Positions 11,384 to 54,809 of a DNA stretch of 64,000 nt are shown here, piece after piece; the stretch's first letter is position 1, and every line of letters starts with the position of its first letter. The position numbers and the translations under genes were made by a program. Source of the DNA: Candidatus Nealsonbacteria bacterium. Lineage in GTDB: Bacteria > Patescibacteriota > Minisyncoccia > Minisyncoccales > JANBVM01. The stretch covers positions 111,159 to 175,158 of the forward strand of contig CP179887.1 of the NCBI GenBank assembly GCA_047456295.1, written 5' to 3'. The notes below the pieces were generated by a model. It did not search any database. It was not told where the DNA came from and was given only the letters and a program-made list of their open reading frames with translations.

Positions 11384-11983
11384 ATGGAAGGAATTATCTC
11401 AAAAAAAGAATTTGATAAATTTATGGCAATTAAAGGAGAAACAAGAGGAGCTTCCATTAAAGGTGAAGCAGACTTTGTGCTTAAAGAAGAGGGAGAAGAG
11501 GGATTGAAGAAATTGGAAGATATAATAACAAAACTTGGCTATCCAATAAAATACAAAGAAATGAAAATAATGAACTTTTATCCTTTGGGATTGGAAGGTA
11601 TTACCTTATTAGCCATTAAGAGGCTCTTTAATTATGATGACAAAAAGTTTCAGGAAATGGGAAGGTTTGAATCTAAGCTTTCTTTCATCATCAGGCTTTT
11701 TATGAAATACTTCTTTTCCATTAAAAGGGTGATTAAAGAAGCCCCAAAGATGTGGAGAGAAAATTACACGGTGGGAGATCTTAAGATAGCAGAATTCAAT
11801 GAAGAGAAGAGATATGCAATTGTAAAACTTGAGAATTTCCGTCTTAATTCCATTCTATGTGAAAACCTTAAAGGGTTTTTCCCTAGCATACTTCAAATGG
11901 TAGTAGGCAAGCCTGTGACCTGTGAAGAGACAAAATGTGTTTTTCGGGATGATGATTATCACGAATTTTTGCTGAAATGGTAA
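11384..11983 (+). CDS. V4R-like domain protein, paralog 1 of 3 (199 aa)
   Basis: Paralogous to 51043-51642 and 54210-54809. The C-terminal CEETKCVFR.D.YHEFLLKW resembles the V4R/COG1719 C-terminal signature. Confidence 0.5.
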   Translation: MEGIISKKEFDKFMAIKGETRGASIKGEADFVLKEEGEEGLKKLEDIITKLGYPIKYKEMKIMNFYPLGLEGITLLAIKRLFNYDDKKFQEMGRFESKLSFIIRLFMKYFFSIKRVIKEAPKMWRENYTVGDLKIAEFNEEKRYAIVKLENFRLNSILCENLKGFFPSILQMVVGKPVTCEETKCVFRDDDYHEFLLKW

Positions 11984-12039
11984 AGAATTGATATTATTAA
12001 TATTTAAAAGGTCGTATTAATCATTAACACCAATAAATT

Positions 12040-12840
12040 ATGGAAAGACAAAGATTAAAAATTAAAAAAGAAGAATTATTAAAAATATTCTTTAATGTCA
12101 TAATCTTCTTTTTCATCTTTCTCACTGTTTTGGTAGCCGTCAATATTATTAACGGAATCAAAAAAGGAAGATACATTGGTCAGGAAATAGAAAGACAAAA
12201 TACCATTAGTGTTTCAGCTACAGGTGAGGTCTTCGCTAAACCTGATTTAGCTTTAATTAGCTTTTCCGTTAAGACAGAGGAAAAAACAGTGAGTGAGGCA
12301 ATGCAGGAAAACACAGAAAAAATGAATGCCACAATTGATTTTATGAAAGCGCAGGGAATTGAAGAAAAGGATTTAAAGACCACCAGCTTTAATATTTATC
12401 CCCGTTATGAATACAGAAAGGAAGAAACAGAAACTTATATCTATCCACCTCCTACCGGCAAAAGAGTGCTGGTAGGTTATGAAGTAATACAATCCCTCCA
12501 GGTGAAAATCAGGGATATGAGCAAGATAGGAGACATTATTGAAGGAGCTACCAGGGCAGGTGCCAATGAAGTTGGCGGTTTACAATTTATTATTGACAAT
12601 GAAGATGAGTTTAAAAAACAAGCCAGGAAGCAGGCCATTGAAAAGGCAAAAGATAAAGCCAAAGAATTAGCTTCTCATCTGGGGGTAAGATTGGTAAGGA
12701 TTAGTAATTTTCAGGAAAGCAGCATTATTCCTCGTTTCTATGAGCTTGAAAAAGCAATGGGAGGAGGTGAAACTCCCCAGATTGAAACAGGAGAAAACCT
12801 CATAGAGGTTACTGTATTCATAACCTACGAGATTAATTAG
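12040..12840 (+). CDS. SIMPL (DUF541) domain protein with N-terminal TM anchor
   Basis: ISVSATGEV..KPDLA, GYEV.QSL.VKIRD and GAN..GGLQF pattern. Confidence 0.8.
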   Translation: MERQRLKIKKEELLKIFFNVIIFFFIFLTVLVAVNIINGIKKGRYIGQEIERQNTISVSATGEVFAKPDLALISFSVKTEEKTVSEAMQENTEKMNATIDFMKAQGIEEKDLKTTSFNIYPRYEYRKEETETYIYPPPTGKRVLVGYEVIQSLQVKIRDMSKIGDIIEGATRAGANEVGGLQFIIDNEDEFKKQARKQAIEKAKDKAKELASHLGVRLVRISNFQESSIIPRFYELEKAMGGGETPQIETGENLIEVTVFITYEIN

Positions 12841-12841
12841 T

Positions 12842-13069
12842 ATGGATGAAATAACCAATGTTTTGTTCGGCAATCCATTGTTTCTTTTATTAATTATTCT
12901 TTGGACTATACCCTGGAAAGCAGTGGCTTTATGGAGAGCCTCAAAAAATAATCACAGGAAATGGTTTGTTGCTTTGCTTGTATTAAACACTTTAGCTGTT
13001 TTAGAGATTATATATATTTTCTTTTTTAGCAAACTAAAGAAAACTGAGCTCAAAGAGCATGAAGGTTAA
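12842..13069 (+). CDS. DUF5652-like small membrane protein
   Basis: WKAVALWRASKNNHRKWFVALLVLNTLAVLEIIYIFFF. Confidence 0.5.
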   Translation: MDEITNVLFGNPLFLLLIILWTIPWKAVALWRASKNNHRKWFVALLVLNTLAVLEIIYIFFFSKLKKTELKEHEG

Positions 13070-13604
13070 GCAATTGGTAGTAGGTGAGCTAGAAGGTAAT
13101 TGCTATTTACTGGCTTCAGAAAATGAGTTGGGGGTCATAGATCCCGGGGGAGAGGCAGAAAAGATTTTAGAAGAAATCAGAAAAGCAAAAGCTGAACCAA
13201 AATACATTATCAATACCCATTATCACCCAGACCATACTGGAGCTAACGAAAAGATAAGAGATAAAACAGGGGCAAAAATCTTAATTCATGAAAAAGAAAG
13301 AGATTTTATAGGTTTTAAGGCTGATGAATTCTTAAAAGATGGAGACAAAATAAAAATAGGGGAGAGTATTTTAAAAGTTATTCATACCCCGGGACACACC
13401 TCAGGTAGTATCTGTCTGTTGGGACAGGGTTTTGTTTTAACAGGTGATACTATTTTTAAAGATGGGTACGGTAGGACCGATCTAGCTGGTGGCTCTCAAA
13501 AAGAGCTAGAAAATTCGTTAAAGAAACTATCAGGCTTATTGAAACCAGGGACAAGTGTTTATCCTGGACACGGTGAATCTTTTCGGGTTTTAAAAAATGG
13601 CTGA
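13059..13604 (+). CDS. MBL-fold metallo-hydrolase
   Basis: NTHYHPDHTG (HxHxDH), HTPGHT and a C-terminal GHG. Confidence 0.8.
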   Translation: MKVKQLVVGELEGNCYLLASENELGVIDPGGEAEKILEEIRKAKAEPKYIINTHYHPDHTGANEKIRDKTGAKILIHEKERDFIGFKADEFLKDGDKIKIGESILKVIHTPGHTSGSICLLGQGFVLTGDTIFKDGYGRTDLAGGSQKELENSLKKLSGLLKPGTSVYPGHGESFRVLKNG

Positions 13605-13845
13605 ATTTAAAGAAAAAATTTATCGAGTTGTTAAAAAAATTCCTCCTGGTAAAACAATGACATACAAAGAGGTGGCTGAAAGTGCAGGTTTCCCAAAAGC
13701 CTGGCGGGCAGTAGGGAATGTGTTAAATAAAAACAGGAGTTCAAAGATTCCTTGTCATAGGGTAATTAAGTCTGATGGAAAGGTCGGTGGGTATTATTTA
13801 GGGACCAAGAAAAAGACTTCTTTACTTAAGAAAGAAGAGTCTTGA
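13597..13845 (+). CDS. MGMT-family DNA-binding domain protein (stand-alone C-terminal domain with active-site Cys)
   Basis: TYKEVAE..G.PKAWRAVGN and IPCHRVI. Confidence 0.75.
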   Translation: MAEFKEKIYRVVKKIPPGKTMTYKEVAESAGFPKAWRAVGNVLNKNRSSKIPCHRVIKSDGKVGGYYLGTKKKTSLLKKEES

Positions 13846-14204
13846 CATCATCTTTTGCTTTCTGTAGACTTTAAAGCAGAATTTGAAATTGTTAATTTTT
13901 GAAAAATGTTACATTTATCAACTAAAAAAGTAAATATTCTCAATTTCAACCTTTCAACCTTGGTGGGTCTATTTGTTTTGTTTATTGTCCTGGAAAGGAT
14001 GGGCGGTTTAAGTTTAAGTCATAGATTTGTAGAAACATAAAGAATATATACTTACTCTTTAAAACATACCTCCCAGTTAAACTGGGAATTTTTATTTTTT
14101 GGTTTGAAAATTGTTTATTTTAAAAAGTAAATAGTTTTCAGGCCAAAAATGGTCTGAAATAGATCTTTTACAATAATTCAATTAAAAACTAATTAAAAGG
14201 AGAT

Positions 14205-14405
14205 ATGGTTATGATAGATATTGGAGATAAAACTCTAAGAGTAAAGATAATTCATAATAATGACGGAACATTCTATAAGGAATGGGAATGTCCTTGCTGT
14301 CAGACAATAAATATAGAGAATGATGGAAGTAAAGTAGTTTTTTGTCAAAGTGAGGAGTGTAAGAAGAACGAAAAGGACACTAACTGGTATATCATACTAG
14401 CATAA
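14205..14405 (+). CDS. small Cys-rich (zinc-ribbon-like) protein
   Basis: SD AAGGAG upstream. CPCC...C..EEC arrangement. Confidence 0.35.
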   Translation: MVMIDIGDKTLRVKIIHNNDGTFYKEWECPCCQTINIENDGSKVVFCQSEECKKNEKDTNWYIILA

Positions 14406-14551
14406 TCAAAGAAGAGTGGTTGAATATCGATAATATAAACAGACGAGGTCATTACTGCCAATCCTGCAATTCAGTTCTTTTTTAGCTACAATTCTTTTAT
14501 AGTTTTTGTAAGGGGTTTTACCCTTCTTTTTTTTGTTTTATAATAGTTATA

Positions 14552-15178
14552 ATGCAAATAGATATGGAAAATAAGAGAATGAAAAATCCTAATAAAACTT
14601 TTACTGTTTTGCTTATTGTTTTGGTTCTTCTTTCAATAATAGTTTTTTTGATTGGAAATGAACAATTATTTTTATTTATCAATCAAGGAATTGCCAATCC
14701 TGTTTTAGACTTTATTGTTCTTAACATACTTATTCCTCTTTTTTTTCTGCTGGGAATTATTCCTTTTATTATGCTCTTTTTTGATAAGTATCGGGTTTTG
14801 GGCGCTTTTTCTTTGTTTTCCGGTCCTTTTTGTTATGTTGTCGGGAGCCTAATCAAGCTCTTTTTTAAAATGCCAAGACCATTCAATGTTCTTTCAATCA
14901 GTGTTATAGGACCCTGGCATGTCGGTCAATTTTCCTTTCCCTCTACCACCACCATGCTGGCTTTTGGTTTTGCTCTTCCTTTTTTAATACAAAGGAAACC
15001 AAAATGGAGCTTGTTTTTTTTAACCCTTTCTATTTTGGTGGGTTTTTCCGTAATCTATACGGGATTTCATTTTCCCAGCGATGTCTTGGGAGGAATATTT
15101 TTTTCTATCTTGATAGTTTTATTGTTAAACAAAATTAAAACTATAATTATAAATAAAATGATAGAACATGGAGCTTGA
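14552..15178 (+). CDS. PAP2-family phosphatase (membrane)
   Basis: KMPRPF, FPSTTT and YTGFHFPSDVLGG motifs, with multiple TM helices. Confidence 0.7.
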   Translation: MQIDMENKRMKNPNKTFTVLLIVLVLLSIIVFLIGNEQLFLFINQGIANPVLDFIVLNILIPLFFLLGIIPFIMLFFDKYRVLGAFSLFSGPFCYVVGSLIKLFFKMPRPFNVLSISVIGPWHVGQFSFPSTTTMLAFGFALPFLIQRKPKWSLFFLTLSILVGFSVIYTGFHFPSDVLGGIFFSILIVLLLNKIKTIIINKMIEHGA

Positions 15179-15686
15179 AGAGGTTTTAAAGAATAGACAT
15201 TCCATTAGGAAATTTCAGAAAAAAGATATTCCAGACAATATCATTAAAAGGATTTTAGGATTGGCCAATCTATCTCCTTCTGCTGGAAATTTACAGGCCA
15301 GAAGCGTGGTAATAGTAAAAGATGAGAAAATAAGAGAAAAGATTTCAGAAGCTACCATGGCCCAGCATTTTGTTGCAAAAGCCCCTGTTGTCTTTGTCAT
15401 CTGTGCCAATCTGGAGGAGTCTGCCATTAAATACGGAAAAAGAGGCAGAGAACTCTATGCAATTCAAGATGCCACCATCTTCGCTTCTTATCTGCAGCTA
15501 GCTGTAACCTTATTAAAACTTTCTTCTTGCTGGGTGGGGGCCTTTAATGAAGATAAAATAAAAAAGATTCTGGACCTGCCAGAACAAATAAGACCTGTTG
15601 TAATAATGCCAACAGGTTTTGCAGATGAACAAGCCTTTTTCACTGGAAGAAAGGGTTTGGATGAAATCATTAAAAAACATATTTAA
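15168..15686 (+). CDS. nitroreductase family protein
   Basis: RHSIRKF, LSPSAGNLQ and the typical ~170 aa size. Confidence 0.8.
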   Translation: MELEEVLKNRHSIRKFQKKDIPDNIIKRILGLANLSPSAGNLQARSVVIVKDEKIREKISEATMAQHFVAKAPVVFVICANLEESAIKYGKRGRELYAIQDATIFASYLQLAVTLLKLSSCWVGAFNEDKIKKILDLPEQIRPVVIMPTGFADEQAFFTGRKGLDEIIKKHI

Positions 15687-15688
15687 AA

Positions 15689-16066
15689 ATGAAGTTAATC
15701 CAAAGCTCTGAAAAAATTTATTGGACCAGGCATGCCAGAGGAAAAATGCGGTATTATAGATTGTCAGAAAATAGAGTAAAAAGGGTTTTGAGAAAGCCAG
15801 ATAGAAAAGAATTGGGTATTGCTTTAAATACCATAGCTGTCATGCAAAGAACTGGAACAAAAAAGCATCCAAGTGAAATCTGGCTGATGTATCAAAAGGC
15901 AAGCTTTAAGTATCAAATACCAAAGTCAAACAAGAAAGCAAGGATAATTAGAATAATCAGTGCTTGGCGCTATCCAGGTAAGAGTCCGAAAGGGCAACCG
16001 CCACCAATACCAGAAGACACTCTTTGGGAATTAAAGAAATTAAATGAAGGCCAGAATTCCAACTGA
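15689..16066 (+). CDS. hypothetical protein (possibly DUF4258-like)
   Basis: N-terminal WTRHARGKMRYYRLSENRVKRVL pattern. Weak assignment. Confidence 0.35.
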   Translation: MKLIQSSEKIYWTRHARGKMRYYRLSENRVKRVLRKPDRKELGIALNTIAVMQRTGTKKHPSEIWLMYQKASFKYQIPKSNKKARIIRIISAWRYPGKSPKGQPPPIPEDTLWELKKLNEGQNSN

Positions 16067-16733
16067 ATATTTAAAAAAGAAGATAGGATTTTTGAATTGT
16101 AAGATTGATTTATCAAAAAAAACCTTCATTCCCAGGATTGAAACTGAATACTGGGTCAGGAAAGCAATAAAAGAAATTAAAAAAGAATTAAAAGACAAAA
16201 ACAAGAAAATAAAGGTTTTAGATGTTTTTGCAGGTTCAGGGTGTATAGGCATTGCTATTTTAAAGAGTATTGGAAACAGCCTGGTTGATTTCAATGACAT
16301 TGATAAAAGAGCCATTGCCCAGATCAAAACAAATTTAAAACTAAATGAAATTTCCTCAAAAAGATACAGGGTTTACAAATCAAGTTTCTTTGAAAAACTG
16401 AAAGGAAAAAGATATGACTTTATCTTTGCCAATCCTCCTTATATAGCAAAACAACGAGTAAAAGAGGTAGAAAGCTCTGTTTTAAAATATGAACCTGAGA
16501 TAGCTCTTTTTTCAGGAAAGAAAGGTATTTATCATATTAAACGCTTTCTTAAAGAGGCTAAGAATTTTTTAAAGAAAAATGGTATAATTTATCTTGAGTT
16601 TGACCCAGACCAAAAAGAGGAAATTAAACATATCTTAAAGAAAAATAAATACCCATACTTCAGGTTTTTTAAAGACCAATTCAGGAAATACCGTTGGGTG
16701 AAAATAATATACAAGATACAAAAGACTTGGTAA
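16044..16733 (+). CDS. prmC: release-factor glutamine N5-methyltransferase (short form)
   Basis: FIPRIETE, VLDVFAGSGCIG and FANPPYI (NPPY). Confidence 0.75.
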   Translation: MKARIPTEYLKKKIGFLNCKIDLSKKTFIPRIETEYWVRKAIKEIKKELKDKNKKIKVLDVFAGSGCIGIAILKSIGNSLVDFNDIDKRAIAQIKTNLKLNEISSKRYRVYKSSFFEKLKGKRYDFIFANPPYIAKQRVKEVESSVLKYEPEIALFSGKKGIYHIKRFLKEAKNFLKKNGIIYLEFDPDQKEEIKHILKKNKYPYFRFFKDQFRKYRWVKIIYKIQKTW

Positions 16734-16744
16734 AATTAAAGAAT

Positions 16745-17080
16745 ATGGATTTAACTAAAATCATTGGCTGGTTAACTTTTTTGGCTGGAATCTCAATAAT
16801 ACTTTTTACCCTTTATTCTTCCTATAATATCTTTACTGGAAAGGCTGAGGTGCCTGAGATTTTTGCCTTTGAAATAGATACCCAGCCAACCCAGGGAAAA
16901 ACCCCTGGCTTGCAGGATCAGCTTGGGCAAATGATAACCGAGCAATTAAAGAATATCTTACCCCTGGAAGCAATATCTACACTTTTGAATTTAATGGTTT
17001 GGGCAATGGGAGCAGGGCTTCTAATTTTTGGCGGTAGTCAAATTGCAGGTTTAGGGATTAAATTAATAAAAAAGCAATAA
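16745..17080 (+). CDS. small membrane protein
   Basis: Internal ATG at 16745 preferred over the track start, which overlaps prmC. Two TM helices. Confidence 0.4.
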   Translation: MDLTKIIGWLTFLAGISIILFTLYSSYNIFTGKAEVPEIFAFEIDTQPTQGKTPGLQDQLGQMITEQLKNILPLEAISTLLNLMVWAMGAGLLIFGGSQIAGLGIKLIKKQ

Positions 17081-17091
17081 ATTACACTTCC

Positions 17092-17475
17092 ATGAAACCC
17101 ATATTTATAAAATGGCTGAAATGGCAGTTTTTTGAAGTACCAAAAAATATCTTAGGAGGATGGAAAAACTTTCTTAAATTTGGTTTAAATTACTTTTCCG
17201 TTCCCCTGCTTTTAAAGACACTTTTTTCTCCCTGGAGAAAATATGAATGGTTCTATCCCCGAGGATTTGATTTTTGGGTCTATCTCGAGATATTTATGTC
17301 AAACCTAATCTTCAGAATCCTGGGAGCTATGTTCAGGAGCATCTTGATAGTAATAGGAATCTTGTTTGAGGTTTTTCTATTCTTTTCAGGATTGGGCGTA
17401 TTCTTGGGATGGCTGCTCCTGCCCTTCTTCTTGGTTTTGGGCATCTATGAAGGATTTAGGCTTTTATTACTATAA
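17092..17475 (+). CDS. small membrane protein
   Basis: Hydrophobic C-terminal half. Stop lies 2 nt before the next ATG. Confidence 0.45.
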   Translation: MKPIFIKWLKWQFFEVPKNILGGWKNFLKFGLNYFSVPLLLKTLFSPWRKYEWFYPRGFDFWVYLEIFMSNLIFRILGAMFRSILIVIGILFEVFLFFSGLGVFLGWLLLPFFLVLGIYEGFRLLLL

Positions 17476-17477
17476 CC

Positions 17478-20057
17478 ATGTTTAATTTTGATTTAAGAAA
17501 AACAGGAATTTTCCAGGCAGTAATTTGGGAAAGGAATCCATTCTTCAGGTTTACCAAAATTCTAAAAAGATTGTTCTGGATTCTTTTTATTATTGTGTTT
17601 TTATTTTTTTGGTATGAATTAATACTTGAAGAGTTTTCAGCATCTTTAACCCGTAAGCTGCTTGGTCTTTCAATAATATCTCTGATTCTTTACCTAATTT
17701 TCTGGATTAATGAATTTTTCTTAGAGTTAAAGATAAAGAAACCTGAATCAAAGATAAAGCTGACAGATAAAGTAGTAAAAGATAAGGGAAAGCATAATCT
17801 GGCTGAATTTTTAAGTTTTGAAACAGCCAAAGCTGTATTAAAAGCAATCAGGTTTGCCAAATCAAAAAAAATCCCTCAAATAAATTCTTCACTTTTATTT
17901 TATTTCATTTTAAAAGACAATCCCAGATTAAATTTTATCTTTTTTCGGGCTTTATTGCATCCAAAGGAAATTAAAAAGATATTCTTTGAAAATCTTAAGA
18001 CCTTGAAAACAGGTTCTGTCAATAAAACAAACAAAGATTCCAAAGAGATTTTTGATGTAAGTTTCCAGAAAGTTATTTTAGACTCTTTAAAGATAGCTGA
18101 GGAAAGGAAACACCAAAAAATTGAGCTCTTAGATATAATTTCTGCTCTGGCAAAACATGATTTAATTTTTAAAAAAATATTAATCAATTCCAATTTAAAG
18201 GCAGAAGACATGGAGAATCTGTCATCCTGGTTAGAAAGGCTTGAAAACAAAGACAAAGAAAGAAAAAAGTTCTGGGAATGGAAGAATTTATTGAGAAAAG
18301 GTTCCTTGGGTAAAGAATGGGCAGCAGGTTATACAGTTACTCTAGATAAGTTCTCTCTTGACCTGTCCAAGATAGCTAAGATACAGGGTTTCCCGGAAAT
18401 CATTGGTCATCAAAAAGAGATTGAAGAAATAGAAAGGGTTTTATCCCGCACCCAAGACAATAATGTATTAATAGTGGGGGAACCAGGCAGTGGAAGAAAA
18501 AGTATAATTCAGGCCCTGGTTGAAAAAAGCGCTCTGGGCGAAAGTCTGCCTGACATAAACTATAAGAGAGTGGTTCAATTAAATTTACCCACACTCTTGA
18601 GTCAAACAGAAACAGTAGAGAAGGTGGGAAACTTATTGGAAATAATATTCAGAGAAATAAGTTCAGCAGGAAACATAATCTTGGTCATTGATGAATTCCA
18701 TAATTTTGTCAGCGGAAAAACCAGACCAGGAGTAATTGACATTTCCGGGGTCTTAGCATCTTTTTTACAATTACCTCAATTTCAGGTTGTAGCCATTACC
18801 ACGTTCAGCGGTCTCCACAAATACATTGAGCAAAATCCTTCTATTTTAAACCTCTTTGAAAGGGTTGAGGTGTCTGAAATTTCTCATAAAGAAACCCTGG
18901 TTGTTTTAGAAAACATGGCCCTTCAACTGGAAGCAAAATATAAAAGGTTTATCTCATATCAAGCCCTTCGCGATATTATCATGTACTGCGATAAATATTT
19001 AGCTGATACTCCTTTTCCAGAAAAGGCAACAGAGTTATTGGATGAAGTAATGGTTTATGTTACCCAAATAAAAGAGAAGGTGGTTTTGGCAAAACATGCA
19101 GCAAAGATTGTGTCTGATAAAACCGAGGTACCGGTGGGGGAGATAGAAACCAAAGAAAAAGAGATATTGTTGAACCTGGAAAATTTAATCCATAAAAGAA
19201 TTATCAATCAGGAAGAAGCAGTAAAGCAGGTTTCAGCTGCCCTGAGAAGAGCCAGGACTGAAATTACAATCAGAAAAGGAACAATGGGATCGTTTTTATT
19301 CTTGGGTCCCACAGGAGTAGGCAAAACTGAAACTGCCAAAGCTTTAGCTGAAATCTATTTTGGTTCTGAGAACAGAATAATCAGACTCGATATGTCTGAG
19401 TTCCAAGATGTTTCTGATATTCCCAGATTGATTGGTTCTCCAGGAGAAGAAGGATTGTTAACCACCAAGGTAAGGGAAGATCCCTTTTCCTTAATCCTTT
19501 TAGACGAGATAGAAAAAGCCCATCCAAACATTTTAAATCTGTTCTTACAGGTATTGGATGAAGGCCATTTAACAGACGGTTTGGGAAGAAAGGTTGATTT
19601 TAAAAATAGCATTATTATTGCCACCTCCAATGCAGGTTATCTTATTATCTTGGAAGCCTTAAAGAAAAACAGGAAAATGTCTGAGGTAAAAGAAGAACTT
19701 ATAGATTTTCTTTTTAAAAAAGGTTTGTTTAGACCAGAATTTATTAATCGTTTCGATGCTGTGGTTTTGTTCAAGGCTCTTACCAAAGAAAATCTATTGG
19801 ATATTGCAGGATTATTATTCAAAAAACTAAAGAAAAACTTAATCCAAAAAGACATTGAATTTATCATTACTCCAGGACTGAAAGAAAAAATTGTTGAACT
19901 CAGTTATAATCCTAAATTTGGAGCCAGAGAAATGAAAAGGGTTATTCAAGATAAGATTGGAAATGTATTGGCAAAATCCCTTTTAAGCAACGAGATAAAA
20001 AAAGGAGATAGAATAGAGATTGATCCAAAGGAATTTAGTTTAAGAATTAACCCCTGA
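17478..20057 (+). CDS. membrane-anchored Clp/Hsp100-type double AAA+ ATPase
   Basis: Two N-terminal TM helices. D1 has GEPGSGRKS and VIDEFH. D2 has GPTGVGKTE and LLDEIEKAH, followed by GAREMKR. Confidence 0.85.
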   Translation: MFNFDLRKTGIFQAVIWERNPFFRFTKILKRLFWILFIIVFLFFWYELILEEFSASLTRKLLGLSIISLILYLIFWINEFFLELKIKKPESKIKLTDKVVKDKGKHNLAEFLSFETAKAVLKAIRFAKSKKIPQINSSLLFYFILKDNPRLNFIFFRALLHPKEIKKIFFENLKTLKTGSVNKTNKDSKEIFDVSFQKVILDSLKIAEERKHQKIELLDIISALAKHDLIFKKILINSNLKAEDMENLSSWLERLENKDKERKKFWEWKNLLRKGSLGKEWAAGYTVTLDKFSLDLSKIAKIQGFPEIIGHQKEIEEIERVLSRTQDNNVLIVGEPGSGRKSIIQALVEKSALGESLPDINYKRVVQLNLPTLLSQTETVEKVGNLLEIIFREISSAGNIILVIDEFHNFVSGKTRPGVIDISGVLASFLQLPQFQVVAITTFSGLHKYIEQNPSILNLFERVEVSEISHKETLVVLENMALQLEAKYKRFISYQALRDIIMYCDKYLADTPFPEKATELLDEVMVYVTQIKEKVVLAKHAAKIVSDKTEVPVGEIETKEKEILLNLENLIHKRIINQEEAVKQVSAALRRARTEITIRKGTMGSFLFLGPTGVGKTETAKALAEIYFGSENRIIRLDMSEFQDVSDIPRLIGSPGEEGLLTTKVREDPFSLILLDEIEKAHPNILNLFLQVLDEGHLTDGLGRKVDFKNSIIIATSNAGYLIILEALKKNRKMSEVKEELIDFLFKKGLFRPEFINRFDAVVLFKALTKENLLDIAGLLFKKLKKNLIQKDIEFIITPGLKEKIVELSYNPKFGAREMKRVIQDKIGNVLAKSLLSNEIKKGDRIEIDPKEFSLRINP

Positions 20058-20095
20058 TAGATTGGGTTAAGCTTAAATATATATAAAAATTGTTT

Positions 20096-20118
20096 CCCCT
20101 TTTATCAAGGGGTTTTTT
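20096..20118 (+). terminator. Rho-independent terminator
   Basis: CCCCTT (20096-20101) pairs with AAGGGG (20107-20112), followed by TTTTTT. Confidence 0.7.
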
Positions 20119-20123
20119 ATATG

Positions 20124-20273
20124 TGTGGATAAAATGTGGATAAAAAGTAATTTTTATCGGGATTTTTAAAGAATTTCACTTTAATTTGACTAAGACATAT
20201 AAAGTGAGATAAAGTGAATACAGGTGGGGGATTGTGGATAAGTATGTTAATAAGTGCCCTCAACTGTGGATAA
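20124..20273 (+). promoter_or_regulatory. mraZ upstream repeat array (MraZ operator-like and/or DnaA-box cluster)
   Basis: TGTGGATAA occurs at 20124, 20135, 20233 and 20265. GTG cores at 20204, 20214, 20224 and 20234 have an exact 10-nt period (AAAGTGAGAT AAAGTGAATA CAGGTGGGGG ATTGTGGATA). Confidence 0.6.
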
Positions 20274-20283
20274 CTCATAATTT

Positions 20284-20715
20284 ATGTTTATTGGTGAATA
20301 CTCATACATAATTGACAGTAAAAAAAGAGTGGCCATACCACCTAAATTTCGCAAAACCTTAGGAAAAACAGCGGTTATTACCAGGGGATTGGATAATTGT
20401 TTAATAGTATATCCTTTAAAAGAGTGGGGGGGAGTAACCAAAAAATTAGAGGCTTTACCCAATACTCAGGTTGATGCCAGGGGATTTGTCAGAATCATGC
20501 TTTCAGGAGCAGTAGACGTAAGGCTTGATAAATTAGGCAGGATATTAATCCCTGATTATCTAAAAGATTATGCTTCTTTAAAAAAGGAAGTGGTGGTAAT
20601 AGGCCTTTCTAATAAAATAGAAATCTGGGATGAAAAGAAATGGCAAGAATACAGAGAAAAAACAGAAAAAGAAGTAGGAGATATAGCTAGCAGATTACAA
20701 GAATTGGGAATTTAA
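20284..20715 (+). CDS. mraZ: transcriptional regulator MraZ
   Basis: Duplicated SpoVT/AbrB-like halves: DSKKRVAIPPKFR and DKLGRILIPDYL. Confidence 0.9.
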   Translation: MFIGEYSYIIDSKKRVAIPPKFRKTLGKTAVITRGLDNCLIVYPLKEWGGVTKKLEALPNTQVDARGFVRIMLSGAVDVRLDKLGRILIPDYLKDYASLKKEVVVIGLSNKIEIWDEKKWQEYREKTEKEVGDIASRLQELGI

Positions 20716-48396: not shown

Positions 48397-48417
48397 GCTC
48401 GGTTCGAGAGACCGAGA
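48397..48417 (+). repeat. GC-rich hairpin repeat, copy 3
   Basis: GCTCGGTTCGAGAGACCGAGA matches 37343-37363 at 20 of 21 positions. Confidence 0.7.
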
Positions 48418-48514
48418 CGCGTTTTTCTTTCAAAGTTCTTATCTCGCAAAACGAGTCGAAGTTATACCACCGGGATAAACTAAATTTATTACTACAATCT
48501 ATGAGTAAACCATG

Positions 48515-48542
48515 TTGACATGACATCTTGGTAGAATATAAT
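48515..48542 (+). promoter_or_regulatory. sigma70-type promoter of the glycosyltransferase pair
   Basis: TTGACA (48515-48520), a 16-nt spacer, then TATAAT (48537-48542). An overlapping TGGTAGAAT lies at 48529-48537. Confidence 0.5.
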
Positions 48543-48607
48543 AAGAGCTATACAAAACATTCTGTTATAAAATTCCACTAATAACGGGATTTTAAAACAG
48601 CTTTATT

Positions 48608-49783
48608 GTGAAAATTCTATTCCTCTATGATTTCCCTTTATGGGGGTCAGGAAGTGGTACATATCTCAGGAATCTCATTACTCAATTAGTTAAATTGAAT
48701 TATAAAATAGGCGTTGTCTGTCCAGAAGAACGCCGGTTTTTAGGAGAAAAAATTAAACAATACCCGGTTAGTCTTTCTCAAATTCCAGTCTTCGTCGGTC
48801 ATCCAGAATTAAAAGGAGCTAAAAGATATTCAGAATTGAGCGAAAGAGAAATTACCAGCATTTATAAATCTTATTTGGATACGACCTTGGAGGCAATAGC
48901 AAACTTTGAGCCAGACATAATCCATACCCAGCATCTTTCTTTAATTAGCTGGGTAGCAAGATATGTCAATGCCCTAAAAAATATCAAATACATCATCACC
49001 TCTCACGGAAGTTGTCTATATAATATTCTCTTTGATAAGAGATATCTACCTCTGTGCGAGGATGCAATGAGATTTGCTAAAGCAATCACTGTTGTAAGTG
49101 GAAATACTCGAAGTAGACTTTTGAAAGTATTTGGCAGGCAGTATCTCAAAAACACTTACATAATTCCCGGAGGAGTAGATATGAAGCTTTTTCCTATTCG
49201 ATTAGATACTTCTTCTATAGATAAAAAATACAAACTTAAAGGTAAAAAATTAGTTCTTTTTACCGGCCGGCTTAGTTCAGAAAAGGGAGTGAAATATTTA
49301 GCAAATGCCGCCAAGGAAATTAAGGGAGAAGTCTTTATAGTTGGAGAAGGGCCTGAGAAACCGTATCTTTCTGATCTCATTGCCAGAAAGAAGCTTGAGA
49401 ACGTCCACCTTATAGGATATTTAATGCATGAAAGCTTAATTGATTTTTATTACAGAGCTGACGTCTTTGTTGCCCCTTCAGTAGTTGAAGAGGCTTTAGG
49501 TCTTTCTATTCTGGAAGCAATGGCTGCTAAAACTCCTGTAATAGCCACTAGAAAGGGAGGAATTCCCCTTTTGGTAAAAAGTGGCCACAACGGACTCTTT
49601 GTTAGAGTAAGAAACTCATCGAAAATCGCAGAGGCCTGTAATAAACTATTGAAAAATGATGAGCTAAGAAAAAAAATGGGAGAAAATGCACGAAAAACAG
49701 TTGAAAAAAAGTTTACCTGGCAAAGAACTGCTAAGAAATTCAACAGCCTTTATAAGAGAACTTGTAGGAACAATAGAAAATAA
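48608..49783 (+). CDS. GT4-family glycosyltransferase
   Basis: GTG start. EEALGLSILEAMAAKTPVIA signature. Confidence 0.8.
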   Translation: MKILFLYDFPLWGSGSGTYLRNLITQLVKLNYKIGVVCPEERRFLGEKIKQYPVSLSQIPVFVGHPELKGAKRYSELSEREITSIYKSYLDTTLEAIANFEPDIIHTQHLSLISWVARYVNALKNIKYIITSHGSCLYNILFDKRYLPLCEDAMRFAKAITVVSGNTRSRLLKVFGRQYLKNTYIIPGGVDMKLFPIRLDTSSIDKKYKLKGKKLVLFTGRLSSEKGVKYLANAAKEIKGEVFIVGEGPEKPYLSDLIARKKLENVHLIGYLMHESLIDFYYRADVFVAPSVVEEALGLSILEAMAAKTPVIATRKGGIPLLVKSGHNGLFVRVRNSSKIAEACNKLLKNDELRKKMGENARKTVEKKFTWQRTAKKFNSLYKRTCRNNRK

Positions 49784-49788
49784 AGTTT

Positions 49789-50883
49789 ATGAAAATTCTC
49801 ATTACTGCTCCTCTCACAAGAAAAATTTCTCCAAAAATTACTGCCGCAAGACCAAGAGTTATTTTTGATTTAACTATTGGTCTTCAGAAAAGAAGACATA
49901 AAGTTTCTGTTTTAGGAACAAAAGATAGTTATATTCCAAGAGTAAAAATTATTCCAGTAATTAAGAAGGGATTTTATGAGTTGTCTTCTTCTCTTGAGAA
50001 TCCTTTTTATACCCATACCTCTTTTTTGGCTAAAATGGCAAAAATTCTTGAGAAGATTGGGAATGATTTCGATATTATTCATAATCATTGTTATCCGGAA
50101 TTCATAAATTTACTTGTTGAAAAGAATATTAAAACTCCGATTGTGACAACTATTCACGCCCAAATGACACCCGAATTAGATGATATTTTATCTTTATTCC
50201 CTGATTCTTATTTTATTTGTATTTCAAAAGCAACTAAAAACCTAGCCAAAAAAACAAAAATCTATAGAGTAATCTACAACGGTATAGATACAAGTTTGTA
50301 CAAATTCTCTTCTAAGAAAGAAGGTTATCTTTTATGGATTGGAAGATTGAGTAAAGCCAAAGACAAAAAGGGAAATTTTATGGATCCTAAAGGAGTGAGG
50401 TGGGCAATAAGATTAGCTAAAGAAACTGGTTTAAACCTTCTTTTGGCAGGAAATGTAGAAGATCCAGAATTTTTTGAAAGAGATGTTAAACCTCATCTAT
50501 CAAAGAAAATCAAATGGATAGGGCCGGTATCCTTTGAACAGCCCTTAAGCAAACATGAGGTAGCAAAGTTAATGCAAAAAGCAAAAGCATTTTTGATGAC
50601 CGTTAATTGGGAAGAACCCTTCGCTTTGGTAATGGCCGAAGCTCAATCTTGTGGGACGCCAGTTATTGGATTTGATAGAGGGTCTACTTCCGAACTTGTA
50701 ATTAATGGGAAAACTGGTTTTATCGTTAAACCAAAAGAAGGAATCGAGGGTTTAAAAAGAGCTGTAAGAAAAATAGATAAAATAAACCCCAAAGATTGTC
50801 GAGAACATATCGAAAAAAATTTTTCTATAAAGAAAATGGTAGAAGAATATGAAAAGATTTATTATAAAATTTTAAATAAATAA
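49789..50883 (+). CDS. GT4-family glycosyltransferase
   Basis: EEPFALVMAEAQSCGTPVIG signature. Starts 5 nt after the previous gene. Confidence 0.75.
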   Translation: MKILITAPLTRKISPKITAARPRVIFDLTIGLQKRRHKVSVLGTKDSYIPRVKIIPVIKKGFYELSSSLENPFYTHTSFLAKMAKILEKIGNDFDIIHNHCYPEFINLLVEKNIKTPIVTTIHAQMTPELDDILSLFPDSYFICISKATKNLAKKTKIYRVIYNGIDTSLYKFSSKKEGYLLWIGRLSKAKDKKGNFMDPKGVRWAIRLAKETGLNLLLAGNVEDPEFFERDVKPHLSKKIKWIGPVSFEQPLSKHEVAKLMQKAKAFLMTVNWEEPFALVMAEAQSCGTPVIGFDRGSTSELVINGKTGFIVKPKEGIEGLKRAVRKIDKINPKDCREHIEKNFSIKKMVEEYEKIYYKILNK

Positions 50884-51042
50884 CTCTTTTAAAATGCTTT
50901 CATTTTAGAATCTGACCGACTACCTGGTCACTACTTTTACCTTTTTTAAGCTCAATAACAAGCCACTCTTTATCTTTTTCTCGGTTTTCTATTCTTTTAA
51001 ATCTTTGCTAAAATAATAATAGACTATTTTAATTAAAAACTT

Positions 51043-51642
51043 ATGGAACAAATAATTTCAAAACAAGAAATAGATGAATTAATGAAGCTTAAAGGGGAAG
51101 TAAAGGGAATGGGAATGAAAACCCACGCAGAGTTCATTTTAAAAGAAGAAGGAAAACAAGGGTTAGAAAAATTAGAAGAGACAATGGAAAAACTTGGTCA
51201 TCCAATAAAATTCAAAGAGATAAGGGGAACAACTTTTTATCCTTTGGGACTGGAAGCCCTTGTCTTGGTAGCCATGCAAAGACTTTTTAATTATGACGAC
51301 AAGAAGTTTCAGGAAATGGGAAGGTTTCACAGTAAATTCTCTTTGATTATTAGACTCTTTATGAAATATTTTATTTCCTTTGACAGAATGGTCAAGGAAT
51401 CTCCAAATATATGGAGAAAATATTTTACAGGAGGAGAGCTTACAGTGGTGGAACACGATGAAGAGAAAAAATATGCAATCTTCAGGGTGGAAGATTTCAG
51501 ATTCCATCCTCTTCATTGCCAAATCATGACAGGAATTCTCGCTATGGTAGTTCAAATGATGGTTAAGGGTAAAGCAGTCTGTGAAGAAACAAAATGTGTT
51601 TTTCGAGGTGATGAATACCATGAATTTCTATTAAAATGGTAG
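51043..51642 (+). CDS. V4R-like domain protein, paralog 2 of 3 (199 aa)
   Basis: Same length as 11384-11983 and 54210-54809, with the invariant block LFNYDDKKFQEMG. C-terminal CEETKCVFRGDEYHEFLLKW. Confidence 0.5.
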   Translation: MEQIISKQEIDELMKLKGEVKGMGMKTHAEFILKEEGKQGLEKLEETMEKLGHPIKFKEIRGTTFYPLGLEALVLVAMQRLFNYDDKKFQEMGRFHSKFSLIIRLFMKYFISFDRMVKESPNIWRKYFTGGELTVVEHDEEKKYAIFRVEDFRFHPLHCQIMTGILAMVVQMMVKGKAVCEETKCVFRGDEYHEFLLKW

Positions 51643-51669
51643 AATTTTTCATTTTGATATATAAAAAAC

Positions 51670-52191
51670 ATGAAGGTAGCAGTTGGTTCTCAAAATCCTG
51701 TTAAGATTAAGGGGGTCAAACAAGCCTTTCAAAAGGTCTTTGGTGATTGTGAGGTTGTGGGGATTTCTGTTCCTTCTGGTATTTCTGATATGCCCATGAG
51801 TTTTGAAGAATTAGTCAAAGGATCTAAAACCAGAGCCAAAAACGCAATTGACAAATTAGATGCAGATTTTGGAGTTGGCCCAGAAGGTGGTTTTGAACAA
51901 AAGGCATTAGGAACTTTCTTGATTGGTTTTGTGGCTGTTGTTGATAAAAAAGGGAAGTGGGGATTTGGAAGAGGAAACGGACTCTTGATGCCAGAGAAGA
52001 TTGTAGAGAAGGTAAAGAAAGGGAAAGAATTAGGAGATGTGATGGATGAAATCAGGGGATTGAAAAATACAAAACACCACGAGGGAGCTGTTGGTTTTTT
52101 CACCAAAAATCTAATCCCAAGAATGAAAACTTTTGAGATAACAACAATCTACGCCCTTTCCAGATTTATTAAAGGAGAAATGTTTGAATAA
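51670..52191 (+). CDS. inosine/xanthosine triphosphatase-like NTPase (YjjX/DUF84 family)
   Basis: VAVGSQNPVK, SGISDMP and GSKTRAKNA. Confidence 0.7.
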   Translation: MKVAVGSQNPVKIKGVKQAFQKVFGDCEVVGISVPSGISDMPMSFEELVKGSKTRAKNAIDKLDADFGVGPEGGFEQKALGTFLIGFVAVVDKKGKWGFGRGNGLLMPEKIVEKVKKGKELGDVMDEIRGLKNTKHHEGAVGFFTKNLIPRMKTFEITTIYALSRFIKGEMFE

Positions 52192-52226
52192 AATATAAGT
52201 TTTTGGTTTTCCAGGATTAAAAGATT

Positions 52227-52254
52227 AAGCCCAAGAAAAATTCTTGGGCTTTTT
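52227..52254. terminator. bidirectional Rho-independent terminator
   Basis: Perfect 11-bp stem, AAGCCCAAGAA/TTCTTGGGCTT, with a 3-nt loop and a T-run. It lies between convergent genes. Confidence 0.8.
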
Positions 52255-52283
52255 ATATATAACCACCAAAAATGATAAGGTAT

Positions 52284-54029
52284 TTACTTTAATAGTTCTG
52301 AATTAATATCAATTTGACCTCTGGCTTGAAGATTCCAGAGATAAGAGTACAGTCCTTTCTTTTTCATTAATTTATCATGGGAACCTGATTCAACAACCTG
52401 ACCTTCATCTAAAACAACGATCTTGTCAGCTCTCCTGACTGTTGAAAAACGATGGGCAATGATTAACATGGTTCTGTCTTGAGCAATCTTCCACAAAGCC
52501 TCCTGAATTAAACGCTCTGATTCAGAATCTAAATTACTGGTAGCTTCATCAAAAATAATAATCTTTGGGTTGGTTAAAAGCATCCGGGCAATCGCCAGAC
52601 GTTGTTTCTGTCCTCCTGAAAGCTTAATTCCTCTCTCACCGACCTGGGTTTCATAGCCTGAAGGTAAGCTCTCAATGAAATCATGAAGATTGGCTATTCT
52701 GGTCACTCTTACAATGTCTGCCTTTTCTGCCTGGCTGTTGCCATAGAAAATATTGAAACCAATCGTGTTGTTGAAAAGGATGGGTTCTTGGGGAACAATG
52801 CCAACAAAAGAACGAAGCTGGCTTTTGGTAAGATTGCGGATGTCAACTCCGTCAATTAATATTGCTCCTTGATTAACGTCATAAAATCGCAATAAAAGCC
52901 TGATAATGGTTGTTTTTCCCACTCCCGACCGACCAACAAAAGCAATTGATTCACCGGGTTTAATATGCAAATTAATATCAGTTAAAATACTCTCTTTATT
53001 CTCAGGATAATTAAAGCTTACCTGCTCAAACCGAATTTCCCCCTTAATATCTCTTATCTCAACCGGTTTTTCCGGGTCTTTGACTAAAATCTCGTTATCG
53101 AGAATGGAAAAATAACGTTTAATATCAATATAGTGTTTGGCAATATCTCTGAAGCGATATAATAAATCAAAAAAGCGATAATAAAAACTGGTGGTAAAAC
53201 TGGCAACCATTACCAGGTCTCCAATACCAATCTCATCCATTACTAATTTACGAATAACAATCCAAAAAACAGCCAGAATGCCCAGGTTAGACAGGGTACC
53301 AATAACAACATCCATTAAACGAAATGTATTGGCATATGCCCACAGTTTAGCTAACCAGTCTTTAAACTCTCCCTTTAAACGGTCTTCTTCTTTTTTTTCC
53401 TGGGCGAAAAATTTCACAGTCTCGTAATTTATTAGATTATCAGTAATAATTCCAGAAATCTTATCCTCAGCTCTGTTAAATGCCTTTCTTTTACTGATAT
53501 TAAATTTAATCAAACGCCAACTGACAAGGGCATTACCCAAAAAAATCAGCACCATTAAAAAGGCAATAAGGGGTGTAATCTTGCTAAAGAAAAACAACAC
53601 AACAAGCAAACCGATTATAATATTAAAAATATGTATGTTTAAATCATGGAAAAGACTGAAAAAGGCTCCATCCCCTCTCTTAAAAGCACTAATCAAAGCA
53701 CCTGTGCTTTTGTTAACATGAAAAGCAAAGTCTAAATCCTGAATCCGCCTAAAAATCATGACCCGGGCATCTCTGGCTGCTGGAAGAAGTACTCTGTCTC
53801 CCAGGTAGAAGCTTAGAGCATTTAAAAGATTAGCTGCAACCTTAAGGCCAACAAATAAAATGACAATTTTCATGAGTAATTGATAGTCTCGAGAGGGAGC
53901 TGCATCAACCAAAAGCTTATAAATATAGGGAGTGAGGCTTCCTAATATTGCTGCTATAACCAACACAAAAACAAAGAGAATGAAGTTCTTTTTGTAGCGG
54001 AATAAAAATTGATAAAATCTTTTAATCAT
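52284..54029 (-). CDS. ABC exporter, fused permease/ATPase (MsbA-like)
   Basis: 6-TM N-terminal half. GRSGVGKTT, LSGGQKQRLAIAR and IIFDEATSNLD. Confidence 0.9.
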   Translation of the reverse strand: MIKRFYQFLFRYKKNFILFVFVLVIAAILGSLTPYIYKLLVDAAPSRDYQLLMKIVILFVGLKVAANLLNALSFYLGDRVLLPAARDARVMIFRRIQDLDFAFHVNKSTGALISAFKRGDGAFFSLFHDLNIHIFNIIIGLLVVLFFFSKITPLIAFLMVLIFLGNALVSWRLIKFNISKRKAFNRAEDKISGIITDNLINYETVKFFAQEKKEEDRLKGEFKDWLAKLWAYANTFRLMDVVIGTLSNLGILAVFWIVIRKLVMDEIGIGDLVMVASFTTSFYYRFFDLLYRFRDIAKHYIDIKRYFSILDNEILVKDPEKPVEIRDIKGEIRFEQVSFNYPENKESILTDINLHIKPGESIAFVGRSGVGKTTIIRLLLRFYDVNQGAILIDGVDIRNLTKSQLRSFVGIVPQEPILFNNTIGFNIFYGNSQAEKADIVRVTRIANLHDFIESLPSGYETQVGERGIKLSGGQKQRLAIARMLLTNPKIIIFDEATSNLDSESERLIQEALWKIAQDRTMLIIAHRFSTVRRADKIVVLDEGQVVESGSHDKLMKKKGLYSYLWNLQARGQIDINSELLK

Positions 54030-54209
54030 AAAAATCTTTCCTTAATTCAAAAATTATATTTCTTCTATTTTTGAACTTAATAATATTATAACCCGAAAAA
54101 TCAAAATTGTAAATAAAAGGCTTAATAATAAGTTAAATAATTTGAGTTTATTGTTTTTATTTTGGGTTATTTTTGCTAAAATAACATATATATATTAATT
54201 TAAAAAATT

Positions 54210-54809
54210 ATGGAACAAGTAATCTCAAAAGAAGAGTTAAATAAATTAATGAATCTTAAAGGAGAAGTAAGGGGAATGGGAATGAAGGGACACGCAGAAT
54301 TTATCCTCAAAGAAGAGGGAGAAGAAGGATTAAAGAAAATGGAAGAAACAATAACAAATCTTGGTTATCCAATAAAATACAAAGAGATAAAACTAATGAG
54401 TTTTTATCCTATTGGACTAGAAGCTGTGACACTGATTGTTATTAAGAAACTTTTTAATTATGATGACAAAAAGTTTCAGGAAATGGGAAAATTTGGAGTT
54501 AAGGTTTCTTTTCTTCTTAGGATTTTTACGAGATATTTCGTTTCACTTGAAAAGTTTGCGAAAGTAGCTCCAGGTATGTGGAAAAAGGGCGGTGCGCTTG
54601 GAGACTTTAAAATAGGGGAATATAACATAGATAAAAGATGTTTAATTTTGAGAATTGAAAATTTCAGTCTCCATCCACTTTATTGCCAAGTTTTTAGAGG
54701 CTATTTTTCCAAAGGACTTCAAATGATAATCGGGAAAGAAACAACCTGTCAAGAAACAAAGTGCACCTTCCGGGGCGATGAATATCATGAATTTTTACTA
54801 ACCTGGTAA
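54210..54809 (+). CDS. V4R-like domain protein, paralog 3 of 3 (199 aa)
   Basis: See the other two paralogs. C-terminal CQETKCTFRGDEYHEFLLTW. Confidence 0.5.
   Translation: MEQVISKEELNKLMNLKGEVRGMGMKGHAEFILKEEGEEGLKKMEETITNLGYPIKYKEIKLMSFYPIGLEAVTLIVIKKLFNYDDKKFQEMGKFGVKVSFLLRIFTRYFVSLEKFAKVAPGMWKKGGALGDFKIGEYNIDKRCLILRIENFSLHPLYCQVFRGYFSKGLQMIIGKETTCQETKCTFRGDEYHEFLLTW

Follow-up and report, generated by a model that had tools for sequence, protein, structure and literature searches.

Three genes for proteins of identical length lie dispersed over a 64,000-nucleotide (nt) stretch of a Candidatus Nealsonbacteria bacterium genome (contig CP179887.1; this whole stretch is called the window below), and they raise the question of what a protein multiplied in this way does. 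Paralog 1 (ACKKMR_00820, 11384..11983), which is V4R/H-NOX-like, paralog 2 (ACKKMR_01035, 51043..51642) and paralog 3 (ACKKMR_01050, 54210..54809) are all located on the + strand, start with ATG and encode 199 amino acids (aa), as a preliminary description made from the letters alone had listed. We lean slightly toward the reading that the family consists of trans-acting, detachable zinc-site sensors that modulate a soluble PAS histidine kinase, and that the three window paralogs are extra inputs to it.

We first consider whether the three open reading frames (ORFs) are real relatives. The pairwise amino-acid identities were 57, 58 and 54% in a gap-free alignment, at the low end of the 55-65% that had been estimated by eye, and the nucleotide identities were 69-71%. 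Identity was highest at the second codon position (0.81-0.83), followed by the first (0.70-0.73) and the third (0.55-0.61). Because the second position is the most conserved and the third the least, the three ORFs are old paralogs under purifying selection, and neither a recent duplication nor chance accounts for them. The previously noted blocks FYP(L/I)GLE and LFNYDDKKFQEMG(R/K)F were found exactly in all three paralogs, and the nucleotide string AAGTTTCAGGAAATGGGAA, reported as identical in the three, is indeed the longest exact string (19 nt) common to them. The reported C-terminal block was correct overall, except that paralog 1 has FRDDDYHEF instead of FRGDEYHEF. A tblastn search of the 64-kb window detected no fourth copy of the V4R-like gene. 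A 149-aa ORF at 51172-51621 on the - strand lies wholly antisense inside paralog 2 and is almost certainly a shadow ORF.

The family assignment was examined with profile searches. PF02830 (V4R) was the sole Pfam match for the three paralogs (22.1, 26.0 and 21.4 bits; residues ~158-197), and all three scores fall below the gathering cut-off of 31 bits. The same profile matched 71 of the 134 diverse relatives at E<=0.01 (best E 4.6e-9), and several homologs already carry a precomputed PF02830 match. Word-indexed searching gave 411 homolog matches, nearly all 197-202 aa long and mostly unnamed or 'hypothetical', and an exhaustive profile search gave 885 clusters (50% identity) at E<=1e-3. The NCBIfam model of MsvR (NF053755) was matched at 14.6 and 16.9 bits against a threshold of 220, in the C-terminal part only, and the helix-turn-helix domain is absent from the paralogs in this comparison. 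A profile built from 134 sequences reached MopR and TRAPPC3 among PDB sequences (Naegleria TRAPPC3 at 14 bits, in the C-terminal motif); a three-sequence profile gave noise only. Neither the paralogs nor the 134 relatives matched PF07700 (HNOB) at E<=1 or PF14196 (ATC hydrolase), and the paralogs had no Pfam match to PF04051 (TRAPP Bet3). DUF2378/TIGR02265, which had been suggested as a profile to search, gave no match in Pfam or NCBIfam at E<=1. No profile search assigned the proteins to a well-characterised housekeeping function. We also rejected a defence-system or phage origin, as PADLOC returned only a chance-level REase_II match (E = 0.016) and no PHROG was matched.

The structure of paralog 2 was predicted by AlphaFold2 from a 64-sequence alignment with a predicted local distance difference test (pLDDT) score of 91.3 and a predicted template modelling (pTM) score of 0.87. 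In a Foldseek search against the PDB, the top 11 matches of this model were H-NOX domains, among them those of Nostoc, Shewanella and the soluble guanylate cyclase beta1 subunit, with E values of 2e-6 to 5e-6 and template modelling (TM) scores of 0.66-0.72 over 187-193 columns. Other matches were TRAPPC3/Bet3 (TM ~0.5), the phenol-sensor domains of PoxR and MopR (TM 0.55), YslB, and the stand-alone V4R protein MJ_1460 (TM 0.42-0.44); the MJ_1460 and MopR/PoxR matches had a Foldseek probability of 1.00 and E values of 7e-5 to 2e-4. The entire protein is thus predicted to be H-NOX-shaped, with the V4R sequence signature in its C-terminal third. The V4R-like character proposed earlier therefore agrees with both profile and fold, and a full-length H-NOX fold, one of the folds named for a structure search, is predicted by the model; the PF07700 profile is silent. 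We read the paralogs as soluble single-domain proteins of the H-NOX/V4R/Bet3 fold superfamily. In a loose sense this membership was already known, since some relatives are annotated as 'predicted hydrocarbon binding protein' or '4-vinyl reductase'.

The C-terminal V4R-type module spans residues 155-199 (11846..11980, 51505..51639 and 54672..54806 on the + strand for paralogs 1, 2 and 3) and contains the predicted zinc ligands C159, E182, C185 and H193 in each paralog. In paralog 2 their codons are located at 51517-51519, 51586-51588, 51595-51597 and 51619-51621 on the + strand. In 123 close homologs C159, E182 and C185 never vary, and H193 is conserved at 99%; in 174 diverse copies from 50 assemblies C159, E182 and C185 are each conserved at 94% and H193 at 91%. 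An alignment that also covers members from archaea and Neomarinimicrobiota bins shows no substitution at any of the four positions. The Cys and His residues pointed out in the preliminary description are thus conserved across the wider family. The family profile pairs C159, E182 and C185 with C155, E178 and C181 of MopR and places H193 on MopR C189; the paired segments are E182-T-K-C185 and G-D-E-Y in the family and E178-T-H-C181 and G-D-E-H in MopR.

The ligand spacing in the family (C159/E182/C185/H193) is 26/3/8. The zinc ligands of MopR are C155, C181 and C189, with a spacing of 26/8 (PMC9556785), and those of DmpR are C151, a Glu, C177 and C185, also with 26/8 (PMC7264223). The conserved Cys triad of MaMsvR (C206, C232 and C240; 26/8) is implicated in redox, and zinc has not been shown there (PMC3729527). 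The stand-alone H-NOX proteins have a spacing of 25/3/8, with C139, H161, C164 and C172 as zinc ligands in Shewanella oneidensis and C149, Q171, C174 and C182 in Vibrio cholerae (PMC7108781). Because the ligand pattern and spacing equal those of known zinc sites, we infer a Zn(Cys2-Glu-His) site, a variant of the site common to the H-NOX/V4R superfamily, in which Glu182 would be the fourth ligand and His would replace the final Cys. The earlier idea of a Cys..Cys..His metal site is accordingly supported by the profile alignment with the MopR zinc ligands, as a predicted site. C180, the additional Cys of the preliminary description, is present in all three window paralogs and in 60% of the dispersed copies, and it was rejected as a fourth core Cys, since only 5 of 26 kinase-adjacent copies have it.

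Whether the H-NOX-like fold also holds a heme was judged from the histidines. Only H155 and H193 are conserved above 60%, both in the zinc-site region, and among the window copies a His at position 96 occurs only in paralog 2. An equivalent of the conserved proximal His was not found among the family histidines, as judged from sequence conservation. A heme cofactor is unlikely and the protein is most probably heme-free, because only H155 and H193 are conserved whereas the proximal heme-ligating His is absolutely conserved in H-NOX (PMC7108781). The pocket residues Y155, Y159 and Y170 of DmpR (PMC7264223) map to positions 163, 167 and 178 by ungapped extension from the zinc ligands. These positions vary among the window paralogs (K/T/R, P/A/S and V/A/T), which would fit diverged pockets.

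The preliminary description regarded three copies as a striking expansion, and its extent proved far greater. Scanning one genome for each GTDB species yielded 75 loci from 50 assemblies, nearly all of them metagenome-assembled genomes (MAGs) of Patescibacteria, Paceibacteria or Nealsonbacteria, with 174 distinct family proteins. The genome of the window has at least five copies, namely the three window paralogs, P0109 (ACKKMR_03590) and P0306 (ACKKMR_02515). From two MAGs ~130 kb each was fetched, and these stretches hold at least 24 and 23 distinct copies, 20 and 19 of them with an intact C..E..C..H pattern. Copies are frequently arranged head-to-tail on the same strand, only a few bases apart: 98 of the 174 lie within 200 nt of another copy, locus L061 has up to 10 family matches within 6.7 kb, and L069 has eight consecutive genes. 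Neighbouring array copies are only ~44% identical (median), which indicates that the arrays are old. One family copy is a pseudogene with an in-frame stop, and three independent head-to-tail two-domain fusions of 402-410 aa were found (pseudogene and fusions together: L025 10001-10504; L033 1194-2402; P0121, P0122); a model of the fused P0121, run without an alignment, reached a pLDDT of 38.6. For comparison, the seven V4R proteins of Ignicoccus hospitalis were called 'an unusually large number' (PMC2253512).

In L061, a Nealsonbacteria MAG, two serpin genes directly follow the nine-copy family array, and a gene for a Kazal-domain protein is located one gene away, ~2 kb upstream of the array (Kazal and serpin loci together: L061 5518-6546 and 15512-17851). 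Protease inhibitors are unusual cargo in so small a genome.

The link to signal transduction came from the gene neighbourhood, for which all 1,265 ORFs of the loci were clustered. The commonest neighbour of the family is a soluble ~520-aa kinase with the architecture PAS-PAS-HisKA-HATPase_c, and in 33 of the 50 assemblies it lies no more than three genes from a family member. A family gene directly precedes 26 of 41 non-redundant kinases with a median gap of -2.5 nt, and 13 family-gene/kinase pairs overlap by 7-10 nt or more. This frequent overlap suggests that the core family gene and the kinase are translationally coupled. The recurrent operon begins with TsaE, a 5'-3' exonuclease and a 290-300-aa multi-transmembrane protein with a C-terminal coiled coil, continues with a run of one to five V4R-like genes, interspersed in some cases with a gene for a 189-aa PAS and coiled-coil protein, and ends with the PAS kinase, two 122-aa CheY-like receivers, Fpg and HolA. 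In the genome of the window the corresponding operon (L079) consists of the transmembrane protein (304 aa), ACKKMR_02515, the PAS histidine kinase (511 aa) and two response regulators. In a neighbour-joining tree (no bootstrap), 45 sequences of 32 assemblies form a widespread clade that is 80% kinase-linked.

The pairing is not limited to one kinase type. In L003, each of two family copies lies ahead of a methyltransferase and a 7TM-GAF kinase. The gap between family copy and downstream kinase is 4 nt on a Neomarinimicrobiota-labelled contig, where the partner is a 1,146-aa multi-PAS hybrid kinase, and 7 nt on a Thermoplasmatales chromosome, where the partner is a PAS kinase with a KaiC-like ATPase gene directly after it (L075 10604-12795).

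The ~300-aa multi-transmembrane protein of the kinase operon has no Pfam match (multi-transmembrane/PAS loci: L016 9096-9998; L030 9100-9975; L038 1646-2215; L079 8952-9866). It shares with the 189-aa PAS protein a terminal coiled-coil motif, F(Q/R)K(L/I)(S/A)VGRELKM(I/M)ELKEEI, and the two resemble a membrane sensor and a PAS module that have become detached from a kinase.

We propose the following mechanism. Cys159, Glu182, Cys185 and His193 would hold a zinc ion beside an internal pocket in a heme-free protein. The signal would be a ligand of the pocket, small and probably hydrophobic, or oxidation of the zinc-thiolate, or both, and would alter the conformation of the sensor. The sensor would then bind the soluble PAS histidine kinase and modulate its autophosphorylation, and the kinase would signal through the two CheY-like single-domain regulators. 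The ancestral copy would be the one directly upstream of the kinase, represented in the genome of the window by ACKKMR_02515, which lies outside the window. Nealsonbacteria-type lineages would have multiplied this gene into dispersed and tandem paralogs, and the window paralogs, which belong to an expansion clade described below, may serve as additional inputs, with pockets that have diverged, to the same limited set of signalling proteins. An extension of this proposal, in which 5 to at least 24 free-standing sensors converge on a single PAS kinase and two CheY-like regulators ('many sensors, one kinase'), is a tentative idea that we consider rather doubtful.

The proposal of a kinase input acting in trans is based on the analogous H-NOX/HnoK pair, on fusions of PAS and V4R domains and on the wiring of MetOD1. 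H-NOX proteins regulate adjacent kinases, and an activated stand-alone H-NOX binds HnoK and inhibits its autophosphorylation (PMC4436077, PMC7108781). The heme-free V. cholerae H-NOX inhibits HnoK after oxidation of its Zn-Cys site (PMC7108781), a precedent that is relevant because the site oxidised there is the one conserved in the family. PAS(PYP)-V4R fusions exist (PMC12826048), and MetOD1 combines an HNOB-like fold and a V4R Cys cluster in archaeal response regulators (PMC5847659). The fusions and MetOD1 show repeated wiring of the H-NOX/V4R fold to PAS and two-component modules.

Several results weigh against the sensor proposal. In the tree, all three window paralogs fall in an expansion clade (79 sequences, 19 assemblies) of which only 4% is kinase-linked. 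The 64-kb window contains no two-component gene, kinase or receiver, and the fourth dispersed copy, P0109, likewise has no kinase or regulator nearby. The L061 and L069 arrays (8-9 copies), whose members form a 17-member clade, lie amid unrelated genes (Wzy_C/TPR, PAP2, serpins and an ABC exporter). An hhalign comparison of the family with Tt H-NOX gave a probability of 0.2%, that is, no similarity at the sequence level, so the relationship to H-NOX is one of fold. Per-site entropy showed that the helix at 68-82 and residues 152-158 are modestly more variable in the expansion clade than in the kinase-linked clade, and the variability is not cleanly concentrated in a putative pocket; the difference is too small to delimit a pocket for specificity. 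The loci were gathered by similarity to the family, so that the adjacency frequency has no independent baseline. Finally, chimeric MAG bins are possible, and some of the taxon labels are questionable.

The main rival explanation, which we regard as fairly improbable, is that the proteins are cytoplasmic carriers or chaperones of hydrophobic molecules that work independently of signalling, with different paralogs covering different cargoes, such as lipids, fatty acids or isoprenoids taken up from a host. Bacteria of the candidate phyla radiation (CPR) are not known to make their own lipids, most expanded copies are not beside a kinase, and one ABC exporter lies between two window paralogs and another near the L069 array. 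The fold family is also known to bind hydrophobic compounds, palmitate in Bet3 (6aq3) and phenols in MopR, PoxR and DmpR (PMC7264223). However, a carrier would not need the tight, often translational, coupling of the core clade to a kinase across phyla, and no lipid-metabolism gene recurs among the clustered neighbours. A scaffold role, in which paralogs pair as hetero-oligomeric subunits without sensing, like Bet3, Trs31 and Trs33 in TRAPP, is in our judgement improbable. The tandem arrays of diverged paralogs and the three independent two-domain fusions would suit such pairing, as would the homo- and heterodimers formed by the Bet3 family, which is homologous to V4R (PMC2253512), and the dimerisation of the MopR and DmpR sensor domains (PMC7264223). 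The copy number, which ranges from 1 to at least 24 among related genomes, is unlike that of a complex with fixed stoichiometry, and many genomes have a single copy with the histidine kinase operon.

The best full-length structural matches being H-NOX domains, the proteins could be true heme gas sensors, divergent H-NOX that bind NO or O2, and the operon partnership of the core copy with a kinase is typical of H-NOX (PMC4436077). We give this explanation very little credence, as there is no PF07700 match, the hhalign probability against Tt H-NOX is negligible, and the well-conserved histidines are confined to the zinc-site region whereas the proximal His is absolute in H-NOX (PMC7108781). An enzymatic function, with the Cys/His/Glu cluster as a catalytic site as in an ATC-hydrolase-like or '4-vinyl reductase'-like protein, seems just as improbable as heme sensing. 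It is favoured by the NCBI name '4-vinyl reductase' of one relative and by the V4R Cys cluster of ATC hydrolase (PMC5847659), but PF14196 is not matched and the ligand pattern equals that of zinc sites described as structural or redox-sensing (PMC9556785, PMC7108781). In addition, no conserved pathway context was found among the neighbours, and dozens of diverged paralogs per genome would be atypical of one enzyme.

The family can be compared with several known systems. Its closest working analogue is the H-NOX/HnoK pair, above all the heme-free V. cholerae H-NOX that senses redox through its zinc site. Like the H-NOX proteins of S. oneidensis and V. cholerae, it consists of a ~190-aa single domain with the same predicted overall fold, and its C-terminal pattern follows Cys-x(24/25)-[His/Gln/Glu]-x2-Cys-x7-[Cys/His] (PMC7108781). 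Its core copy adjoins a histidine kinase followed by response regulators, as in H-NOX/HnoK, although this is not so for the window paralogs. The family differs from H-NOX in having neither detectable sequence similarity nor a conserved proximal His, in its second ligand (Glu) and its last ligand (His instead of the Cys of the V. cholerae and S. oneidensis proteins), in the PAS domains of its partner kinase and in its 5 to at least 24 copies per genome. The V4R proteins compared comprise the sensor domains of MopR, PoxR, DmpR and XylR, MsvR, and the stand-alone MJ_1460. The C-terminal module aligns residue-for-residue with MopR at the zinc ligands, and the Cys-26-Cys-8 spacing is identical to that in MopR, DmpR and MsvR (PMC9556785, PMC7264223, PMC3729527). 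Unlike these proteins, the window paralogs score under the Pfam cut-off, have His for the third Cys, and carry an extra N-terminal helical subdomain that gives an H-NOX-like whole (TM 0.7 versus 0.42-0.55). The family is also not fused to a DNA-binding or AAA+ domain and is instead paired with a kinase in an operon.

MetOD1 of methanogen response regulators, compared here by its description only, resembles the family in its HNOB-like secondary structure, its V4R-type Cys cluster and its wiring into two-component signalling (PMC5847659). MetOD1 is fused to a receiver and has three Cys, whereas the family is stand-alone, has Cys/Glu/Cys/His and is located upstream of the kinase. Bet3/TRAPPC3 shares the homologous fold and a weak profile match to the C-terminal motif; it has no zinc ligands, and vesicle tethering is unsupported for the family. 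Ignicoccus hospitalis provides a parallel of lineage-specific V4R multiplication in an organism with an intimate cell-cell association (PMC2253512), with seven copies versus at least 23-24 here, in much smaller genomes.

Among the papers searched, none links V4R with Patescibacteria or CPR bacteria, and nothing was found on the Cys/Glu/Cys/His variant on a full H-NOX-like fold, on an expansion of this size in CPR genomes, or on the often-overlapping pairing with a PAS kinase across CPR bacteria, an archaeon and another bacterial bin. CPR bacteria have tiny genomes, and how they perceive the host or environment is little understood; Nealsonbacteria/Paceibacteria-type members are thought to have very little signal transduction. 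The family is a concrete candidate for a main sensory input of these bacteria, because the metal site is intact, the copies number from 5 to more than 20, and the presumed ancestral copy appears translationally coupled to a kinase that may be among the few kinases in these genomes. It would join three subjects that are commonly discussed separately, namely the H-NOX heme sensors, the hydrocarbon-sensing V4R domain and the zinc/thiol redox switch that works without heme in Vibrio H-NOX, and a heme-less, zinc-site member with a kinase partner would support in-trans kinase regulation as an old property of the fold that is not specific to heme. Should 'many sensors, one kinase' be true, the sensors would form a modular repertoire of ~1-3% of all genes, a trans-acting sensory repertoire of a kind undescribed in any bacterium and possibly tuned to host-derived metabolites or redox cues in episymbiosis. 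The proteins are small, soluble and confidently predicted, which makes them good targets for ligand discovery.

We then analyzed the upstream regions of the three window genes. The extended -10 reported just before paralog 1 is present: TGATATAAT ends 6 nt ahead of the ATG and forms part of a promoter-like site, TTGGTA-18-TG-TATAAT (11348..11377, + strand), which would plausibly leave a very short leader or none. The upstream element described as common to paralogs 2 and 3 is also exact. There are exactly two occurrences of TTTGCTAAAATAA in the 64 kb; they start 39 nt (paralog 2) and 38 nt (paralog 3) upstream of the ATG. Upstream of paralog 2 (51004..51033, + strand), TTTGCTAAAATAA contains a TTGCTA -35-like box, and after a 17-nt spacer TTTAAT follows, with the ATG 9 nt after this second hexamer; upstream of paralog 3 (54172..54201, + strand), the TTGCTA of the same 13-mer is followed after a 17-nt spacer by TAATTT, with the ATG 8 nt after it. 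A consensus promoter scan called nothing at either of these two positions, and the hexamers there are our own reading. In all three paralogs, the second hexamer ends 6-9 nt ahead of the ATG.

Near-matches of TTTGCTAAAATAA precede tRNA-Val, tRNA-Glu and one more gene at similar distances. We therefore rejected TTTGCTAAAATAA as a specific operator, and its simplest reading is an ordinary -35-like region, possibly a relic of duplication. A GGAG or GAGG was found within 20 nt upstream of only 4 of the 68 called genes of the window, and translation initiation in this genome is largely Shine-Dalgarno-independent. Thus, a leaderless mRNA or one lacking a Shine-Dalgarno sequence was rejected as a trait special to the paralogs. 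The spacer upstream of paralog 1 also contains a purine-rich stretch of higher GC content (11230-11310). It was rejected as an RNA element, with no Rfam match and a folding worse than that of shuffled sequences (z = +2.1).

The neighbours of the three genes are as previously described, and the 'stand-alone' status of the genes is doubtful, because same-strand genes follow paralogs 1, 2 and 3 at 56, 27 and 42 nt, and a hairpin is found only after the NTPase gene. Paralog 1 is flanked by PD-(D/E)XK and SIMPL genes, and its locus is syntenic in related MAGs (PD-(D/E)XK, family copy, SIMPL, MBL). Paralog 2 neighbours two GT4 genes and the NTPase_I-T (YjjX-like) gene (51670..52191, + strand), beyond which lies a terminator-like hairpin with an 11-bp stem (52227-52251). 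Given the 27-nt gap and the position of this hairpin, paralog 2 and the NTPase_I-T gene are probably co-transcribed as a bicistronic unit.

Paralog 3 neighbours an ABC exporter and a DHO_dh fusion. The exporter is of the MsbA type (52284-54029, - strand) and sits between paralogs 2 and 3, and a similar one lies near the eight-copy L069 array (L069 10511-12295); this proximity may be a coincidence or a hint of a link to the export of hydrophobic compounds. The gene at 54852-56459 encodes a 535-aa protein in which DHO_dh covers only residues 7-267 and the C-terminal end is Cys-rich; its C-terminal half has no Pfam match at E<=1e-3, and it had earlier been read as a PyrD-PyrK-type fusion. On L079, a contig whose proteins are identical to those of the genome of the window, an intein interrupts an RtcB RNA ligase gene (19023-20609) that lies beside an archease gene.

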